Positions 29,470-43,708 of a stretch of 64,000 bases of DNA are shown in pieces. Both the position numbers and the translations under genes were made by a program. The stretch is from Ruminococcus flavefaciens (lineage in GTDB: Bacteria > Bacillota > Clostridia > Oscillospirales > Ruminococcaceae), in contig DFHF01000022.1 in NCBI GenBank assembly GCA_002371825.1, forward strand, positions 5,101 through 69,100, read 5' to 3'. The notes below the pieces were generated by a model. That model had not been told where the DNA came from and made no database searches. It saw only the letters and a program-made list of their open reading frames with translations. The first letter of the stretch is position 1. Each line of letters begins with the position of its first letter.

Positions 29470-31301
29470 GACTTTTCACCGCCTTTGCCGGAGCTGTTTT
29501 TTCTTGAAGGCATATCCTCTACCAGACATTTCGGTGATGAGCCGATAAGGTCACGTCTCCCGGCAGCCTTAAGAGCCTCCAGTACTATCTCCCTGTTCTG
29601 TGGGCGGAAATACTGAAGCAGGGCTCTCTGCATAGCTTTTTCCTTCGGAGTTTTGGGAACATAGACCTTCTCCATTGTATAGGGGTCAAGCTCGGTATAG
29701 AACATACAGGTGGATATAGTTCCCGGAGTGGGATAGAAGTCCTGGACCTGTTCCGGACGTATCTTGTTATCACGGAGGAATATTGCCAGGTCTATGGCCT
29801 CATTGAGTGTGCTTCCGGGATGTGAGGACATAAGGTAGGGGACAAGGTACTGCTCCTTGCCCATGCCCTTGGTTATCTCGTAGAATCGCTTCTGGAAGGC
29901 CTTATATGCCTCGATATGAGGCTTCCCCATCTTATCCAGGACTACTGCCGAGCAGTGCTCCGGAGCGACTTTGAGCTGTCCGCTGACATGATGCATTATA
30001 AGCTCACGGATGAACTCATCGTTTTTGTCCTCCATGAGGTAGTCATAGCGTATGCCGGAGCGGATGAACACTCTTTTTATGCCTTTTATTTTTCTTATCT
30101 TTCTCAGCAGGGCCAGATACTCAGTGTGGTCGGCCTTGAGTGCGGGACATGGTGTCGGGGCGAGACATTTCTTGCCCATGCAAAGTCCCTTGCTGAGCTG
30201 TTTTTCGCAGGAGGTGTGTCTGAAGTTTGCGGTCGGACCTCCCACATCATGTATGTAACCCTTGAAATCGGGCATTTTTGTTATGCGCTCTGCCTCGGCA
30301 AGCACTGATTCCTCGCTCCTGACTGTGACACGTCTGCCCTGATGCAGGGCAATGGAGCAGAAATTGCAGTATCCGAAGCAGCCTCTGTTATGGGTTATGG
30401 AGAATCTTACCTCCTCGATTCCGGGGACTCCGCCCTGTGCTTCGTAGGAGGGGTGTACCATTCTGGTGTAGGGCAGGCTGTAGATATGGTCCAGCTCTTC
30501 GGTAGTGAGGCTGTATGCCGGCGGATTCTGTACCAGCATGAGCTTTCCGTGGCGCTGAATGATTATTTTTCCGTAGACCTCGTCCTGCCAGTCGTACTGT
30601 ATTTTTGTGGCCTTTGCGTATTCGGTCTTATTGCTGCTTACCTGTTCAAGTGAGGGACATTGTGCGGCGCCTATCGGAGTATTCACCGGCTCTGTCATAT
30701 AGCAGGTGCCCCGGACGTCATGTATCTCACGGATATCCTCGCCATTGGCAAGGCGGGTGCATATTTCTTCTATCTGATGCTCGCCCATGCCGTATATGAG
30801 CAGGTCAGCACCGCTGTCAGGAAGCACGGAAGGTCTTACAGCGTCATCCCAGTAGTCATAGTGTGCAAATCTTCTGAGAGATGCTTCAAGTCCGCCGATT
30901 ATCAGCGGTATATCGCCGAAGTACTCTCTTATCTTCTGACAGTATACGATAACAGCTCTGTCAGGACGTTTTCCGGCCATACCGCCGGGGGAGTATGCAT
31001 CGTCTGAGCGCTTTCTCTTGGCAGCTGTGTAGTGAGCCACCATTGAGTCTATATTTCCGGAGGTAACAAGAAAAGCGTACTTAGGTGCGCCGAAACGGCG
31101 GAAGTCTTTGTCCGAGTGCCAGTCAGGCTGAGCGATGACTGCCACGGTAAAGCCCAGTGATTCAACAAGGCGGGTGATTATGGCGGCACCGAAGCTTGGA
31201 TGGTCAACATAGGCGTCGCCTGTGATATAGATGAAGTCGAACTGTTTGATGCCCAGCTCGTCCATTTCTTTTTTCGTGGTCGGGAGGAATCCCTCATACA
31301 T
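29334..31301 (-). CDS. ygiQ: YgiQ family radical SAM protein
   Basis: GDAYVDHPSFG, HNRGCFGYCNFC, DVGGPTAN, SGIRYD, SGQLKVAPEH, QVQDFYPTP; start at 31301 behind gaggtga. Confidence 0.9.
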   Translation of the reverse strand: MYEGFLPTTKKEMDELGIKQFDFIYITGDAYVDHPSFGAAIITRLVESLGFTVAVIAQPDWHSDKDFRRFGAPKYAFLVTSGNIDSMVAHYTAAKRKRSDDAYSPGGMAGKRPDRAVIVYCQKIREYFGDIPLIIGGLEASLRRFAHYDYWDDAVRPSVLPDSGADLLIYGMGEHQIEEICTRLANGEDIREIHDVRGTCYMTEPVNTPIGAAQCPSLEQVSSNKTEYAKATKIQYDWQDEVYGKIIIQRHGKLMLVQNPPAYSLTTEELDHIYSLPYTRMVHPSYEAQGGVPGIEEVRFSITHNRGCFGYCNFCSIALHQGRRVTVRSEESVLAEAERITKMPDFKGYIHDVGGPTANFRHTSCEKQLSKGLCMGKKCLAPTPCPALKADHTEYLALLRKIRKIKGIKRVFIRSGIRYDYLMEDKNDEFIRELIMHHVSGQLKVAPEHCSAVVLDKMGKPHIEAYKAFQKRFYEITKGMGKEQYLVPYLMSSHPGSTLNEAIDLAIFLRDNKIRPEQVQDFYPTPGTISTCMFYTELDPYTMEKVYVPKTPKEKAMQRALLQYFRPQNREIVLEALKAAGRRDLIGSSPKCLVEDMPSRKNSSGKGGEKSWNHAGKASRHTEHQKAPRSQFSSRSSSKSSKTTFSGKKGRKGGK

Positions 31302-31314
31302 AAGTATCACCTCA

Positions 31315-33918
31315 TCAGTCGATATCCTGCATACGGCGGAGCTTCATCTCATCAAACTGCATACGGGACATATATACCTTTCTTGGCTTTGAGCCTTCGC
31401 TTGGGCCGATCACTCCACGCTCCTCCAGTTCGTCGATAAAGCGTGAAGCCTTGGCATAGCCCAGTTTCAGCTTCTTCTGAAGCATAGTAGTAGAGACCTG
31501 ACCGTTCATAACAGCTATTTCCATTGCACGGAAGAGTATCTCCTCGTCCTCGCCGGAGATATTGCTGTCGCCGCCGTCGGACTTATCTCCGCCCTTGGTC
31601 TGGGGAACATAGCTCTCAACGGCTTCGGTTACTGAGTGGTCGTACTCAGCCTCTCCCTGAGCCTTGATATATTCGATAGTTGCCTGTATCTCGCTGTTGG
31701 AAGCGAAGCAGCCCTGTACACGCATGGGGTCATTGACTCCGATGGGCTTGTAGAGCATATCTCCGTTTCCGAGGAGCTTGTCAGCACCGCCGTCGTCGAT
31801 GATAGTGCGGGAGTCAGTGCCTGACATTACTGAAAGTGCGATACGGCTCGGGATATTTGCCTTGATGGTACCTGTGATAACGTCTGTGGTAGGACGCTGT
31901 GTAGCAACAACAAGGTGCATACCTGCGGCACGTCCCATCTGAGCAAGACGCTGTATGGAATCTTCAACTTCATTTTTTGCCACCAGCATCATATCAGCCA
32001 GCTCGTCGATGAAAATTACTATCTGCGGAACATGGTCGAGGTCGTTGGCCTCGGCGTATTCATTATAGGACTTAAGGTCATTTGCGCCGCTCTCGGCGAA
32101 CATCTTATATCTTTTCAGCATCTCCTGTACTGCCCAGTTAAGAGCTCCGGGAGCCTTCTTTGCCTCAATGATGATAGGGGTCAGCAGGTGCGGTATACCG
32201 TCAAATACCTTGAATTCAACCATTTTCGGGTCAATAAGTATGAGCTTTACCTCTGATGGCTTTGCATTGAAGAGGATACTCATTATGATAGAACGGGTGC
32301 AGACTGACTTACCTGAACCGGTAGTACCGGCGATAATGACATGGGGCATTTTGGATATGTCTCCCAGCACACAGTTTCCAGCGATATCCTTTCCGACAGC
32401 GAATGTCAGCTTGCTGGAGGCATTCTGGAAGTCTGAGGAGGCAAGTATCTCACGGAGCGATACAGTATCTCGCTGACCGTTAGGCACCTCGATACCCACA
32501 ACCGGTTTTCCGGGAACAGGGGATATACGGACTCCTGATGCAGCAAGACTGAGAGCGATATCAGCATCGAGGCTCTTTATTTTAGCGATCTTTACTCCGG
32601 TTCCGGGCTGTACTTCGTATCTTGTGATAGAAGGACCACGGAAAATATCCCTGATACGGACCTCAACACCGAAGCTTCGGAGAGTATTCACGATAGTATC
32701 AGCCTTTTCACGCATCTCCCTTGCAGCATCTGCGCTGTTTGAGGAGTTCTTGGGCAGTGAGAGAAGGTCGATAGGGGGGAGGATATACAGGGGCTCAAGA
32801 GCGAATTCCTGCTGCTGTTCCTCTGTTTCTATATCAGAGGGCTCGATATCGATTATCTCACCGTCGTCGTAATTATTATTTGCAGCTTTTGAGATGAGCT
32901 TTTCAAGCTGTTCATCCGAGGATGTGAGGACTGTCTGGCCGGTATAGCTTCCGACAATACCTTCTCCGGCAGGGAGGTCGTTTACTTCTCCGCCGGCCGG
33001 GAGAGGGACATCCATGAGGAAACCGTCTATCATACCGTCATCAGTCGGAGCCTGAGAGTTGTGTATCTTTGGCTGAGGCTCCGGGAGTCTCTTGCTGTTG
33101 ACCATATTTATAGCTTCTATATCCTCGTATGACTGATAAATTGCCAGTTCATCCGGGATAGGTGAAGGCTCGGGAGGCTCTGGCTGGAATCTCTCAGCCG
33201 GCTCGTATTCTTCCTCATGTTCATCTTCTTCGTATTCATCCTCGAAGGCCTCGTCAAATTCCTTGCCCGTGAGGATGTTCACGAATCCTTCAAGGCATTC
33301 TGCAGCAAAAGTGAAGGGCCTTGTGAGGAGCTTGAGGAAGTCTATAAGTCCCAGGCCTGAGAGTAGCATACCAAAGACGAAGAAGAGTATCACAGCTATG
33401 ATACGGGCACCAAGTCCGCCGAAAGCAGCAAGCAGAGGGCCTGCTATGATTATGCTTGCGACACCGCCGCCGTGGAGTTCAACACCGTCCTCGTAAAGCG
33501 CACCGAAGTGCGCGAGAAAATTGTGGCCGGGAATCTTGCCGACTATGAATATCTGCAAGGCGGCAGAGGCGAGGAATGTCATCGCAACACCCCATACTGC
33601 ACGTCCTGCAACATTTCTCTGGCTTTTTTCCATGCCTATCTGGACCGATGTGTATATGAGTATCACCGGCACGAAGAATACTGCTGCGCCGAACATTCCC
33701 AGCAGAAAGTTATGTATCCCCAGCCAGCCGGCACTGCCCTTGACAAGAGTCATAAGGGCTATGAGTATGCCGAAGGCGAAGAGTATTATTGACCAGAACT
33801 GGTTCGAGTCATTTTTTGGAGCGCCGGATTTATCAGTCTTTACAGGCTTTTCCGTTTTTTCCGGAGCAGCGTTCTTAGGCGGCCGTCCGGCACGTTTTTT
33901 CTTTGCTTCTGATGCCAT
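31315..33918 (-). CDS. ftsK: FtsK/SpoIIIE DNA translocase
   Basis: N-terminal TM domain, HVIIAGTTGSGKS, IDPKMVE, IDELAD, ATQRP, gamma domain LQKKLKLGYAKASR. Confidence 0.95.
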   Translation of the reverse strand: MASEAKKKRAGRPPKNAAPEKTEKPVKTDKSGAPKNDSNQFWSIILFAFGILIALMTLVKGSAGWLGIHNFLLGMFGAAVFFVPVILIYTSVQIGMEKSQRNVAGRAVWGVAMTFLASAALQIFIVGKIPGHNFLAHFGALYEDGVELHGGGVASIIIAGPLLAAFGGLGARIIAVILFFVFGMLLSGLGLIDFLKLLTRPFTFAAECLEGFVNILTGKEFDEAFEDEYEEDEHEEEYEPAERFQPEPPEPSPIPDELAIYQSYEDIEAINMVNSKRLPEPQPKIHNSQAPTDDGMIDGFLMDVPLPAGGEVNDLPAGEGIVGSYTGQTVLTSSDEQLEKLISKAANNNYDDGEIIDIEPSDIETEEQQQEFALEPLYILPPIDLLSLPKNSSNSADAAREMREKADTIVNTLRSFGVEVRIRDIFRGPSITRYEVQPGTGVKIAKIKSLDADIALSLAASGVRISPVPGKPVVGIEVPNGQRDTVSLREILASSDFQNASSKLTFAVGKDIAGNCVLGDISKMPHVIIAGTTGSGKSVCTRSIIMSILFNAKPSEVKLILIDPKMVEFKVFDGIPHLLTPIIIEAKKAPGALNWAVQEMLKRYKMFAESGANDLKSYNEYAEANDLDHVPQIVIFIDELADMMLVAKNEVEDSIQRLAQMGRAAGMHLVVATQRPTTDVITGTIKANIPSRIALSVMSGTDSRTIIDDGGADKLLGNGDMLYKPIGVNDPMRVQGCFASNSEIQATIEYIKAQGEAEYDHSVTEAVESYVPQTKGGDKSDGGDSNISGEDEEILFRAMEIAVMNGQVSTTMLQKKLKLGYAKASRFIDELEERGVIGPSEGSKPRKVYMSRMQFDEMKLRRMQDID

Positions 33919-41085: not shown

Positions 41086-41727
41086 CTAAACTATGCCCTG
41101 ACTGATAACGTCTGCGAATCTCTTCTCCAGCACCGGGGCATTCTCGTGAAATCCTGCCGGGTCTGAGAAATATATCTGTACAGCGCTGTTAAGGTCGCTG
41201 AGGTATCTGCTTATAGCTTCACCGGACTGTTCCTCGGAGAGGCCTGAATTCAGGAGCCTTCTTGTGAAGGAGCCGCCGCTTATGGCTGCGGAATATCCGC
41301 TGTATCCTTTGGCTTCAAGTATTGCAGCTTCGGCCTTTGCCCGGTACCGGAAGAAGTTTCCGAACATTTCAGTCAGTACATCGCTCTGTGTGCGTATCTG
41401 AACTTTCAGAGTGCCGATATACTTGTCAGGGAGCCGGTCAAGCTCTACTTTATAATTTATGGTGGGGCGGTATTTGTATTCAAGAGCGGTGCGGAGTGTC
41501 ATAAGCGATGCTGAGCGCTGCTGCTGAATACGGAAGCTGCTGCTTATCATATCAGACATGGTCTGGAAAATATCATGCATCCGCATTTCCGGAGTGACGC
41601 AGGAGAGATTTTCTGCGAGTATCTGATTTATAAGATTGGAGCGGCTTGTGCCTCTCCGATAGGCCTCTGCATCAACTGCTTTGATAACGTCGTCCATGAG
41701 GACGAGGCTATAGACACTTTTTTTCAT
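41086..41727 (-). CDS. Ribbon-helix-helix (CopG-like) DNA-binding protein upstream of clpB
   Basis: N-terminal SVYSLVLMDDVIKAVDAEAYRRGTSRSNLINQIL fits the RHH pattern; RBS ggaggcga; start reassigned to 41727. Confidence 0.7.
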   Translation of the reverse strand: MKKSVYSLVLMDDVIKAVDAEAYRRGTSRSNLINQILAENLSCVTPEMRMHDIFQTMSDMISSSFRIQQQRSASLMTLRTALEYKYRPTINYKVELDRLPDKYIGTLKVQIRTQSDVLTEMFGNFFRYRAKAEAAILEAKGYSGYSAAISGGSFTRRLLNSGLSEEQSGEAISRYLSDLNSAVQIYFSDPAGFHENAPVLEKRFADVISQGIV

Positions 41728-41755
41728 ATTCATCGCCTCCTTTATATATAGAGTA

Positions 41756-41791
41756 TCACGGATTATAGAATTTGTCAAGCGAATTATATAA
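41756..41791 (-). promoter_or_regulatory. Promoter of the RHH-clpB unit with an inverted repeat around the -35
   Basis: TTGACA (41773-41778) -17- TACTCT with an extended TG (the -10 lies at ~41750-41755). IR ttatagaatt (41763-41772) / aattatataa (41782-41791), 9/10 match, 9-bp spacer. Confidence 0.55.
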
Positions 41792-41865
41792 TTTTTCACG
41801 CAAATTTCACATTGCAAAAAAATACGGACATATCCTCACACAATGGCAAAGACAGTCCGCAGGGC

Positions 41866-41893
41866 AAAAAAAATCCTTCCCGTGAGGGAAGGA
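41866..41893 (-). terminator. Intrinsic terminator
   Basis: Minus strand tccttccc-tcac-gggaagga-tttttttt. Confidence 0.85.
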
Positions 41894-42120
41894 AACTTCG
41901 GTTCAAACGGATAAACCGTTTAGCACTGTGAACCGAGCCATAGACAATAAGTTAAAACAAGTTATTGAGAATAGAAAACATGAAAAAATTACAAATGAAA
42001 GGGGTTAGTTTTATGTGTTAATGAAACTTTTTCTATGGCGTGCAAATGAATCAATACTCATTATCAAGCACATGAGAGGGGAGGGCGCTTGATATTGAAT
42101 ACCCATATTCTTCATTTGCT
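41866..42120 (-). ncRNA. Candidate orphan small RNA (~255 nt)
   Basis: Minus-strand TTGCAT-17-TATAAT promoter (42155 to 42127), long 5' hairpin with C-rich loop, intrinsic terminator at 41866-41893; no ORF with an RBS. Confidence 0.55.
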
Positions 42121-42159
42121 GATTGTATTATAGCGCAAAACGAGAATCAATGCAATATA

Positions 42160-42189
42160 CAAAACTACACAAAACTGCACAAAACTGTA
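42160..42189. repeat. Three tandem 10-bp direct repeats
   Basis: caaaactaca / caaaactgca / caaaactgta. Confidence 0.8.
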
Positions 42190-42280
42190 TTTTGGACGCG
42201 TTTTTAGTATTTTTTCATGTCAACTTTTTGTAAATAAGTTTTCTGAATTTATAAATTTACATAATAGCAATGATTTTTCT

Positions 42281-43708
42281 TTAATTCAAGGAGAATATAT
42301 TCTTTCCGTCTTCGACTGTCACTGAGTCAGAACTGCTGCCGTTGACAACGGTGTAAAAACTGCTTCCAATGGCTATCTCGGGAGCCAGCATCATCAGGCT
42401 TCTGAAGCTATTGTGAGGGGCAAAGCTGACCATCTGAGTACCGTCAAGGACCATTTCCACCTTGCTTCCTGCTGAGACAGACTCCCCCAGGTCGACAATA
42501 ATATACGGGGTATTTGAATATGTAGGCGCAGAGACCAGATTTCCGGCCGCAAAGAGGTATCCGCCGGTATAATTGAAGCTTCCGGCTGCATAGATAGAGC
42601 TTTTCTCCTCCTTAGTGCCGCCTGATACTATAGCTGAACCGCCGTTGATATTGATAGTTCCCTTGGATTTTATACCGTTAGTACCGCCTTTTATGTCGAG
42701 AGTTCCGCCGTTTATCGTAACATCGTCGTGAGCGGTGAGACCTGTCTTAACAGCTTTGATATTGTAGATACCGTTTTCGATGATAATATCGTCGTCACTT
42801 GAAATGCCATGAGCGTTTCCTGAGTTTATATTGAGAGTGCCATTGCCCTTGAAACGCAGGGTATCATTGGAGAAGATAACACCGTTGTTTATCTTGTCAT
42901 TTCCGCCGTCGCTGAGAGTATTGACAGTGCCTTCACGGACTTTTATGGTGCATTTTTTAGCTTCGTTGACCAAAATGGCCGGGCCGGAAGAATTGGAGAT
43001 ATCAACTCCGTCAAGGATTACGGTAACATCTTCTTCTGTAGCTGTATTGACACATATCTGTCCTGACATCTTGCCTGAGAAGCGGTAATCTCCGCCGGCG
43101 GTAATGGTGACTACGCTGCCTGATACGGAAACATTTTCTCCGGTGACCTTGGGTGAGGAGCTCAGTGTGATCTCAGCAGTGTATACTTTTTCATCAGAAG
43201 GAGCGTCTGTGGGAGATTGCTGCTCCTGACTGCCGGATGAACTGCTGCCTGAGCTGCTGTTTCCGGAGGAGCTGTTTCCGCCTGAGGAGCTGCTGCCTGA
43301 GGTATTTCCCCCTGATGACTGGCCTGATGATGAGCTGCCGGATGAGGAATTTCCGCTACCGGAGGAAGAGTTTCCGGAAGAGGCCGAAGCTGTATTGGTG
43401 GAACTGCTGCTTCCGGAGTTCTTTGCTGTAGTTGAAGTGGTTTTATTGTCATTATTGGCTTTTGCAGTTGTCTGAGAGTTCTTTTCCGAACTCTTCGTAC
43501 TGCTTTCACTGCTTTCAGAGGTCTCCTCCTCTGTACTGCTGCCGGATACGTCAGAGCTGCTGCTGCCTGCTGACGGAAGATCTGAAACCATTGTTGTCTC
43601 GGGATCGCTGCCAGTTTTTTCAGAGCTGCTGCTTATTATTCCGCAGGAGGCAGTTCCGCCTATCATTGTAATAGAGATGAGTGCCGCAAGAAATCTTTTG
43701 TGGTTCAT
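42281..43708 (-). CDS. Lipoprotein with Ser-rich linker and Cthe_2159-like (DUF4353) beta-helix carbohydrate-binding domain
   Basis: Lipobox GTASC, ~150-aa S/T/G linker, then VVTITAGGDYRFSG, VTVILDGVDI, GVIFSNDTL.F.GNGTLNI, HGISSDDDIII.NG.Y repeats. Confidence 0.8.
   Translation of the reverse strand: MNHKRFLAALISITMIGGTASCGIISSSSEKTGSDPETTMVSDLPSAGSSSSDVSGSSTEEETSESSESSTKSSEKNSQTTAKANNDNKTTSTTAKNSGSSSSTNTASASSGNSSSGSGNSSSGSSSSGQSSGGNTSGSSSSGGNSSSGNSSSGSSSSGSQEQQSPTDAPSDEKVYTAEITLSSSPKVTGENVSVSGSVVTITAGGDYRFSGKMSGQICVNTATEEDVTVILDGVDISNSSGPAILVNEAKKCTIKVREGTVNTLSDGGNDKINNGVIFSNDTLRFKGNGTLNINSGNAHGISSDDDIIIENGIYNIKAVKTGLTAHDDVTINGGTLDIKGGTNGIKSKGTININGGSAIVSGGTKEEKSSIYAAGSFNYTGGYLFAAGNLVSAPTYSNTPYIIVDLGESVSAGSKVEMVLDGTQMVSFAPHNSFRSLMMLAPEIAIGSSFYTVVNGSSSDSVTVEDGKNIFSLN

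Follow-up and report, generated by a model that had tools for sequence, protein, structure and literature searches.

A conserved and abundant small RNA with C-rich motifs beside RHH-clpB in the Ruminococcus flavefaciens group

The 3′ hairpins of Staphylococcus aureus RNAIII, LhrC of Listeria and the streptococcal csRNAs use UCCC or CCUCC loop sequences to occlude ribosome-binding sites, often those of genes encoding exported or envelope proteins. In RsaE, a C-rich motif (CCCCUUU) is present twice, once within a hairpin loop and once as an unpaired stretch separating stems, and these motifs bind G-rich Shine–Dalgarno regions (PMC6158497). Here we describe an RNA gene on the minus strand of Ruminococcus flavefaciens contig DFHF01000022.1, located within a window of 64,000 nt (the whole stretch of DNA that was analysed, to which plain coordinates refer). 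The RNA lies nearly always between a gene for a Cthe_2159-type lipoprotein and the RHH-clpB genes.

The new RNA resembles RsaE/RoxS (RF01820, Bacillales) in being a small RNA that is transcribed independently and ends at an intrinsic terminator, and in having one C-rich motif, CCUCCCCUCUCAU, in an apical loop and another, ACCCCUUUCAU, in a region that lacks covariation-supported pairing. The motifs are thus arranged as in RsaE/RoxS, the first exposed by a hairpin loop and the second lying between stems. A sequence-only reading of the locus had already compared its C-rich motifs with the unpaired ones of RsaE/RoxS, and this comparison is borne out here. In other respects the RNAs differ: the new one comes from Oscillospirales (Clostridia), is ∼2.5 times longer (254 versus ∼100 nt), and possesses an extra invariant U-rich block of 63 nt and a third hairpin with CAGUGCUAA. 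Nor is there any sequence or covariance-model similarity to RsaE/RoxS; a cmscan of positions 41700-42350 against Rfam at E ≤ 10 returned five chance-level hits only, RsaE not among them, and a scan of the whole window with the 4227 models of Rfam 15 at gathering thresholds gave zero matches. RNAIII, LhrC and the csRNAs are unrelated to the new RNA in sequence, size, fold and taxonomy, and pairing by the latter is predicted. We conclude that this is a new RNA family of a known kind, i.e. a Firmicute small RNA with C-rich motifs, and not a member of RsaE/RoxS. Its unusual traits are an abundance at or above that of 6S RNA, the near-invariant 63-nt block and the fixed position beside RHH-clpB.

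Transcription, fold and conservation of the RNA

Expression was examined in Logan metatranscriptome contigs, which are unstranded and report mean depth only. Contigs of the RNA were confined to 41889-42121. In run X25, a single 221-nt contig (41901-42121, depth 29) was the only one in the interval 41300-42800, and its end at 42121 lies one base from the predicted start. Coverage in runs X26, X27, X35 and X41 was restricted to 41896-42104, and in X26, X30 and X35 the RNA alone was covered while its flanks were not. Run X33 gave depths of 400-2700 over the RNA (973 for an exact-match contig) as compared with 2-5.5 over the flanking genes. Overall, the RNA was covered at 100 to 1000 times the depth of its neighbours, and in this species the depth dropped from hundreds or more to zero past the terminator. 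Because coverage was selective for the RNA, DNA contamination is excluded as its source. At the locus of strain FD-1, which belongs to a second species, unitigs of the RNA reached depths of 330-790, as against 69 for the RHH-clpB contig and 4-5 for the upstream gene.

The 6S RNA of the same genome served as a yardstick. It reached a comparable depth of 316-1000 in X33 but was unassembled in X25, X30 and X26, where the new RNA was assembled; the level of the new RNA is thus at or above that of 6S RNA. The two are not the same molecule, as the canonical 6S RNA (RF00013, 66.7 bits) is encoded elsewhere in the genome (contig C39, 6484-6665) and the fold of the new RNA differs, lacking the 5′/3′ closing stem and the central bubble of 6S. 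Run X33 also contained a 102-nt fragment, 42004-42105 (RNA positions 16-117), with adapters on both sides and a depth of 973, which may represent either a stable product of processing or an artefact of the library.

Predicted transcription starts with the A of AGCAAAUG at 42120, seven bases past the −10 box of a sigma-70-type promoter (Table 1). In the locus alignment, the −10 box reads TATAAT in 32 of 33 species and the −35 box follows the pattern TTGnnA. This promoter was missed by a consensus scan, since its −35 box in the window fits TTGACA at only three of six positions; the promoter call is supported by cross-species comparison instead. The ∼130 nt between the stop codon of the upstream gene and the −35 box are conserved throughout the genus. 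They contain phased A-tracts (AAAAAGTTAAC, AAAA and AAAAGTAC) and, upstream of the −35 box, an imperfect inverted repeat with the genus consensus GTACAC-N14-GTGTAC, which in this genome takes the form of three 10-bp direct repeats (42189-42160), a version that is species-specific and not genus-wide. The conserved region may act as an UP element or an operator, and its A-tracts and inverted repeat suggest a strong, possibly regulated promoter.

The 255-nt stretch has a predicted minimum free energy of −71.7 kcal/mol, compared with −43.8 ± 4.5 kcal/mol for 200 dinucleotide shuffles (z = −6.2, 0/200), and the length of the RNA varies only between 245 and 263 nt across 32 species. When the minimum-free-energy fold of this genome was laid on a MAFFT alignment of the 32 species, 84.5% of the cells were paired, as opposed to 35-45% with the partners slid by one to three columns, and 41 pairs exhibited changes on both sides (22 ± 2.7 in shuffles, 0/500). 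A model-based alignment of 97 distinct sequences gave both-side changes in 49 of 55 pairs, with 600 such cells against 178 ± 12 after shuffling (0/500); since this alignment was fitted to the covariance model it is biased towards structure, and the MAFFT result is the independent one.

All main helices are backed by covariation. In hairpin 1, 18 of 28 pairs changed on both sides in the MAFFT alignment (87-92% of cells paired) and 24 of 28 in the model alignment. In the latter, the closing stem of domain 2 showed both-side changes in six of six pairs, including compensatory GC to AU and UA to CG exchanges; hairpin 3 did so in all eight outer and three of five inner pairs, and the terminator, whose U-tract is present in all species, in eight of eight. 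Loops and linkers are conserved in a different manner. The apical loop CCUCCCCUCUCAU is unpaired in the minimum-free-energy fold, and its CCCUCUC is unchanged in 32/32 species, as is the AGUGCU within CAGUGCUAA. Nearly every position of the 63-nt block is kept in 30 of the 32 species while the stems vary, and no helix predicted inside the block has covariation support in the MAFFT alignment. The block gives way to another U-rich sequence in a sister genus and in the two species that have diverged most; the loop motif stays in all.

Promoter, hairpins and terminator are all present where the sequence-only reading had placed them, and its proposal of a discrete, structured non-coding RNA with its own promoter and terminator is upheld by the confined contigs, the fold statistics and the covariation. 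The existence of a discrete RNA is close to certain. With its own promoter, its own terminator and a discrete, abundant transcript, it has the attributes of the trans-acting small RNA class.

Table 1. Coordinates of the RNA gene and its parts within the window.
Feature	Coordinates	Strand	Description
Whole RNA	41866-42120	-	∼254 nt; defined by fold, full-length covariance-model matches, RNA-seq contigs and length conservation
Promoter, sigma-70-type (predicted)	42127-42155	-	−35 TTGCAT 42155-42150; 17-nt spacer; −10 TATAAT 42132-42127
Conserved region upstream of promoter	42156-42285	-	seen in alignments of 20, 33 and 103 homologous loci
Hairpin 1	42042-42119	-	78 nt; outer stem GCAAAUGAA/UUCAUUUGC plus inner stem
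C-rich apical loop of hairpin 1	42072-42084	-	CCUCCCCUCUCAU, 13 nt; anti-Shine–Dalgarno-like motif 1
Domain 2 closing stem, 5′ strand	42032-42039	-	GCCAUAGA; partner 41937-41944
Domain 2 closing stem, 3′ strand	41937-41944	-	UCUAUGGC; partner 42032-42039
Near-invariant U-rich block	41950-42012	-	AAAACUAACCCCUUUCAUUUGUAAUUUUUUCAUGUUUUCUAUUCUCAAUAACUUNUUUUAACU, 63 nt
C-rich motif 2	41995-42006	-	AACCCCUUUCAU (as RNA ACCCCUUUCAU); inside 63-nt block, domain 2
U-rich stretch	41979-41991	-	UAAUUUUUUCAUG; inside 63-nt block
Hairpin 3	41898-41936	-	asymmetric internal loop carrying CAGUGCUAA
Invariant motif of hairpin 3	41920-41928	-	CAGUGCUAA; in internal loop
Rho-independent terminator	41866-41893	-	8-bp G+C-rich stem 41893-41874; 4-nt loop; U8 41873-41866; found by terminator scan

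Distribution of the family and its genomic neighbourhood

The RNA gene is single-copy in the source genome (2.83 Mb, 91% complete, with the window on contig C55). By BLASTN it was found in 32 of 36 other sampled species of the genus, at 69-88% identity, and gave no match in 24 other families of the order. It is missing from four species of the genus (G005, G019, G022 and G033); weak covariance-model hits in G019 and G022 were dropped, as they have neither RHH nor clpB as neighbours. A covariance model of the RNA (R1; 254 positions, 55 pairs) gave one full-length match per locus in 100/100 sources, i.e. the window and 99 further loci.

To cover a wider range, a pattern of the three invariant motifs was scanned across 185,579 species genomes, yielding 116 hits where ∼24 chance matches were estimated. 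Four hits in unrelated phyla were set aside as being within chance expectation, and three fell on contigs labelled Alistipes. Almost all of the remainder carry the label Ruminococcus or R. flavefaciens, with a few under other names, e.g. Anaerotruncus sp. MC2020 or Oscillospiraceae bacterium. Strains FD-1, 007c, ATCC 19208, MA2007, ND2009, YL228, YAD2003, Y1, SAb67 and XPD3002 are positive, as are assemblies from the guts of cattle, sheep, goat, yak, deer, horse, rabbit, mouse and human. The three 'Alistipes' loci (L091, L096 and L128) combine the RNA pattern with an upstream Cthe_2159 homologue of 58-60% identity; L091 and L096 are full-length covariance-model matches of 198 and 223 bits, and L128 scores 170 bits. 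These contigs are probably Ruminococcus contigs mis-binned into Bacteroidota assemblies.

Model R1 produced no hits in 39 other genera of the family or in 400 genomes of the order (179 genera), but its sensitivity is limited, for it also missed the copy of a sister genus, G466. This diverged homologue (L219, 1063-1323) was found by looking upstream of RHH-clpB; R1 scores it at 19 bits (E = 0.007), and only with its filters switched off. The gene order is again Cthe_2159 gene, RNA, RHH, clpB. The homologue is 257 nt in length, begins with AGCAA, folds with z = −5.9 and forms a long first hairpin with the apical loop GUCCCCCUCUCAAA, in which the C-rich loop motif is kept as CCCCCUCUCA; ahead of the terminator lies another unpaired C-rich motif, ACCUUCCUCUUUAUG. 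In fourteen other genera that carry RHH there is no such RNA upstream of RHH (clpB is confirmed only where the loci extend past RHH). The RNA is thus a single-copy family of the genus of the R. flavefaciens group, with > 100 members and at least one diverged copy in a sister genus. Originally regarded as an orphan, it does lack an Rfam family; the label does not hold for its distribution, which is genus-wide.

On the same strand, an RHH gene follows the RNA within < 400 nt in 127 of 142 loci, and a Cthe_2159-type gene directly precedes it in 66 of 88, with no such gene in 20 of 88. The putative promoter of the RHH gene, TTATATAA-N5-TTGACAAATTAT, accompanies the RHH family in 17 of the 40 genera of the family Ruminococcaceae. 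The combination of RHH with its own promoter is far wider than the RNA; RHH-clpB therefore has no need of a leader such as this RNA, which is an addition to an older locus. In the window this promoter region (41740-41815, minus strand) reads TTATATAA-N5-TTGACAAATTAT-N-TAtAAT and comes after GTGAAA-N5-GTGAAA. Its sequence is conserved over at least 15 Ruminococcaceae genera (L219-L233), unusually deep for a promoter, and such depth suggests that an operator lies here, to which the RHH protein itself may bind. Compared with most species, the window has an insertion of ∼50 nt (41816-41865, minus strand) between the RNA terminator and the RHH promoter, which finishes with another T-run, GGATATGTCCGTATTTTTTT; at the same position in species G455, a second terminator hairpin is clearly recognizable. 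Such tandem terminators may insulate RHH-clpB from the very active RNA promoter.

In another genus (G450, locus L220), the gene for DUF4956, the VTC partner, is directly followed by RHH-clpB, and both the Cthe_2159 gene and the RNA are absent. Because G450 has this pairing without the RNA, the association of a polyphosphate-polymerase module with clpB would be older than the RNA; together they may constitute a stress island.

A further observation concerns the CAGUGCUAA motif, eight nucleotides of which are identical to the right arm, GAGTGCTAA, of the heat-shock operator CIRCE. The genome contains four canonical CIRCE elements (TTAGCACTC-N9-GAGTGCTAA; contigs including C16, C27 and C56), located directly past the −10 boxes of htpG, groES, an hsp20 gene and hrcA, while clpB has no CIRCE. 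A link between the HrcA regulon and an RNA that carries CAGUGCUAA beside clpB is conceivable; the CIRCE hairpin would compete with any pairing.

Candidate mechanism, predicted targets and rival explanations

We lean, with some reserve, towards the reading that the RNA is a trans-acting, possibly Hfq-assisted, anti-Shine–Dalgarno riboregulator that works in the manner of RsaE/RoxS. Transcribed from its own strong sigma-70-type promoter at ∼42120 and ended by the intrinsic terminator at 41866, it would act in trans by base-pairing. Its two unpaired C-rich motifs, CCCUCCCCUCUCAU in the apical loop and ACCCCUUUCAU, would mimic the anti-Shine–Dalgarno end of 16S rRNA and pair with G-rich ribosome-binding sites (GAGAGGGG or GAAAGGGG), thereby blocking translation initiation, while the adjoining U-rich stretch UAAUUUUUUCAUG would additionally cover AUGAAAAAAUUA start regions. 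Assistance by Hfq would fit the terminator hairpin with its U8 tail and the presence of hfq in the genome (tblastn, contig C42, 54% identity to Bacillus subtilis Hfq, E = 6e-23), features which, judged from the sequence, are those of an Hfq-associated small RNA. The Shine–Dalgarno pairing put forward in the sequence-only reading thus stays a plausible, conditional mechanism.

Potential targets were sought in the translation start regions of the 2552 predicted genes of the source genome. The top sites for pairing with the C-rich loop belong to a gene for an ECF-type sigma factor, to plsY and to several cellulosomal GH5 and GH9 genes. The sigma-factor gene (contig C50, 48793-49347) takes first or second place in the whole genome for each of the two C-rich motifs, with a predicted pairing energy of −25 to −29 kcal/mol at the site UUGAGAGGGGGAGGGCC; a run of five Gs (GAGAGGGGG or GAAAGGGGG) is kept in 10 of its 13 closest orthologues, compared with 22 of 2544 start regions in this genome. 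The ECF-type sigma factor is therefore the best candidate among the predicted targets. This family is expanded in the genus, with up to 10 paralogues per genome, all of which begin with MDNG..., and the orthologues closest to the C50 gene have rare GGGGG ribosome-binding sites.

Several of the GH5 and GH9 dockerin genes carry UGAGAGGGG as their ribosome-binding site, and the dockerin group as a whole outscored other genes (p = 3e-7). As to the U-rich block, its centre, UAAUUUUUUCAU, is complementary to AUGAAAAAAUUA, that is, a start codon followed by Lys-Lys-Leu codons. Complements of 12 nt to the block were found in 13 start regions, as opposed to 2.4 ± 2.2 for shuffled blocks (1/200), and most genes with such starts encode exported proteins beginning with MKKL. 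The ribosome-binding site of the adjacent RHH gene, which had been suggested as a target, does not stand out: RHH and clpB sites pair no better than those of an average gene with either C-rich motif (median percentile ∼0.3 across ∼90 species) and were discarded.

Several observations weigh against the anti-Shine–Dalgarno reading. The metatranscriptome contigs carry no strand, so the transcribed strand is deduced from the conserved promoter and the one-directional terminator. Genome-wide, the C-rich loop showed no preference for start regions over internal gene windows, and the sigma-factor sites of many species also score high against the real 16S tail. Cellulosome (dockerin) genes were rejected as a target class: their enrichment was reproduced by the anti-Shine–Dalgarno tail of 16S rRNA, by a bare CCUCC and by the loop in reverse, so that it reflects strong ribosome-binding sites and not this RNA. 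The purE gene, with a perfect 12-nt match to the block in this genome, was likewise abandoned, the match being kept in only ∼8 of 30 species. All targets named here are predictions, and none is established. Finally, near-invariance over 63 nt and abundance at the level of 6S RNA are unusual for a simple base-pairing RNA and would fit a protein partner equally well. As a separate observation, the leader of purE (contig C30, gene at 30898-31398, minus strand) resembles a purine riboswitch by eye, with UAUAA...GUUUCUAUGG...GACUAUA.

A protein-binding role is the main rival, though we consider it unlikely. The RNA would then be a sponge or scaffold whose C-rich loop, U-rich block and CAGUGCUAA bind an abundant protein, such as Hfq, KhpA/KhpB or a cold-shock protein, and it would titrate that protein or deliver it instead of pairing with mRNAs. 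KH domains, as in KhpA/KhpB, prefer C-rich RNA, and the genome encodes a khpA-like gene besides hfq. The 6S-like abundance, a 63-nt block that stays near-invariant while the helices drift, and a loop without a genome-wide pairing signal all speak for this role. On the other hand, the RNA has no repeated protein-binding motif of the CsrB/RsmZ type, csrA was searched for in the genome and not found, and the arrangement of the motifs fits base-pairing RNAs such as RsaE. Moreover, the wholesale replacement of the U-rich block in the two divergent species and the sister genus, with the fold kept, looks more like co-evolution with RNA targets.

The pieces could also be combined into one broader and rather improbable scheme, in which a clade-specific RNA as abundant as 6S would be a global brake on translation starts in the chief cellulose degrader of the rumen. 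Its loops would control the expanded ECF sigma factors, and the block, being the complement of an idealised start region, GAGAAUAGAAAACAUGAAAAAAUUA, would mask the starts of mRNAs for exported, MKKL-type proteins, so as to couple the output of secreted and cellulosome proteins to clpB as a proteostasis locus; CAGUGCUAA may provide a link to the HrcA regulon.

It is quite improbable that the RNA is a cis-acting leader or attenuator of an RHH-clpB heat-shock operon, with regulated read-through of the terminator driving RHH-clpB. The close same-strand RHH gene would agree with such a role, as would the strong expression of RHH-clpB alongside the RNA in run X52 and, at the FD-1 locus, a single 4-kb contig in run X48 that extends from the RNA 5′ end through clpB and indicates some read-through or overlap. 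However, a leader or riboswitch would have no promoter before its gene, whereas a conserved putative promoter separates the RNA from RHH, and all but one of the examined genera with this promoter have no RNA. In this species the depth past the terminator falls to zero, ∼10% of the loci have no downstream RHH, and a conserved alternative (anti-terminator) pairing was not seen.

A small mRNA is very improbable. The candidates are a leaderless open reading frame of 34 codons (MKNMGIQ...), one of nine codons within the block (MFSILNN(L/F)F) and, antisense, one of 13 codons (MKKLQMKGVSF...), none of which is preceded by a ribosome-binding site. In favour of translation, the nine-codon frame is found in 73 of 97 sequences and the sole variable base of that part of the block is a third codon position; the 34-codon frame keeps a form of 33-34 codons in one sub-clade. 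Across homologues, however, the latter starts with ATG in 40/97 and with TTG in 46/97 sequences, is hit by frame-shifting insertions and deletions and ranges from 2 to 84 codons, so that this possible refutation raised in the sequence-only reading fails. The 63-nt block is unchanged at all three codon positions, the micro-frames are lost in the divergent species and the sister genus where the fold stays, and the antisense strand has no promoter and a terminator that works in the other direction only. The RNA has no conserved coding potential.

That the RNA is a mere 3′ untranslated tail and terminator of the Cthe_2159-type gene is extremely improbable: although that gene usually lies directly upstream on the same strand, with no terminator between its stop codon (42281) and the RNA, and one contig (X28) joins the two, the RNA exceeds it 100- to 1000-fold in depth (so that the terminator does not just stop read-through from this gene, as had been considered), a contig begins at 42121, the −10 box hardly varies and the gene is absent from 20/88 loci.

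Meaning for the R. flavefaciens group

Bacteria of the R. flavefaciens group are keystone degraders of plant fibre in ruminants and other herbivores. We know of nothing on post-transcriptional regulation in this group, and our literature search found no paper on small RNAs of R. flavefaciens. The RNA described here is among the most abundant transcripts of the group in rumen metatranscriptomes and is conserved in > 100 species from the guts of cattle, sheep, deer, horse, rabbit, mouse and human. Its covariance model could be added to Rfam and would account for a sizeable set of non-rRNA reads that so far lack an assignment in rumen RNA-seq data. As the RNA is present in the cultivable strains FD-1, 007c, ATCC 19208 and YL228, direct experiments are possible, and it provides a first access to the biology of small RNAs and Hfq in Oscillospirales.

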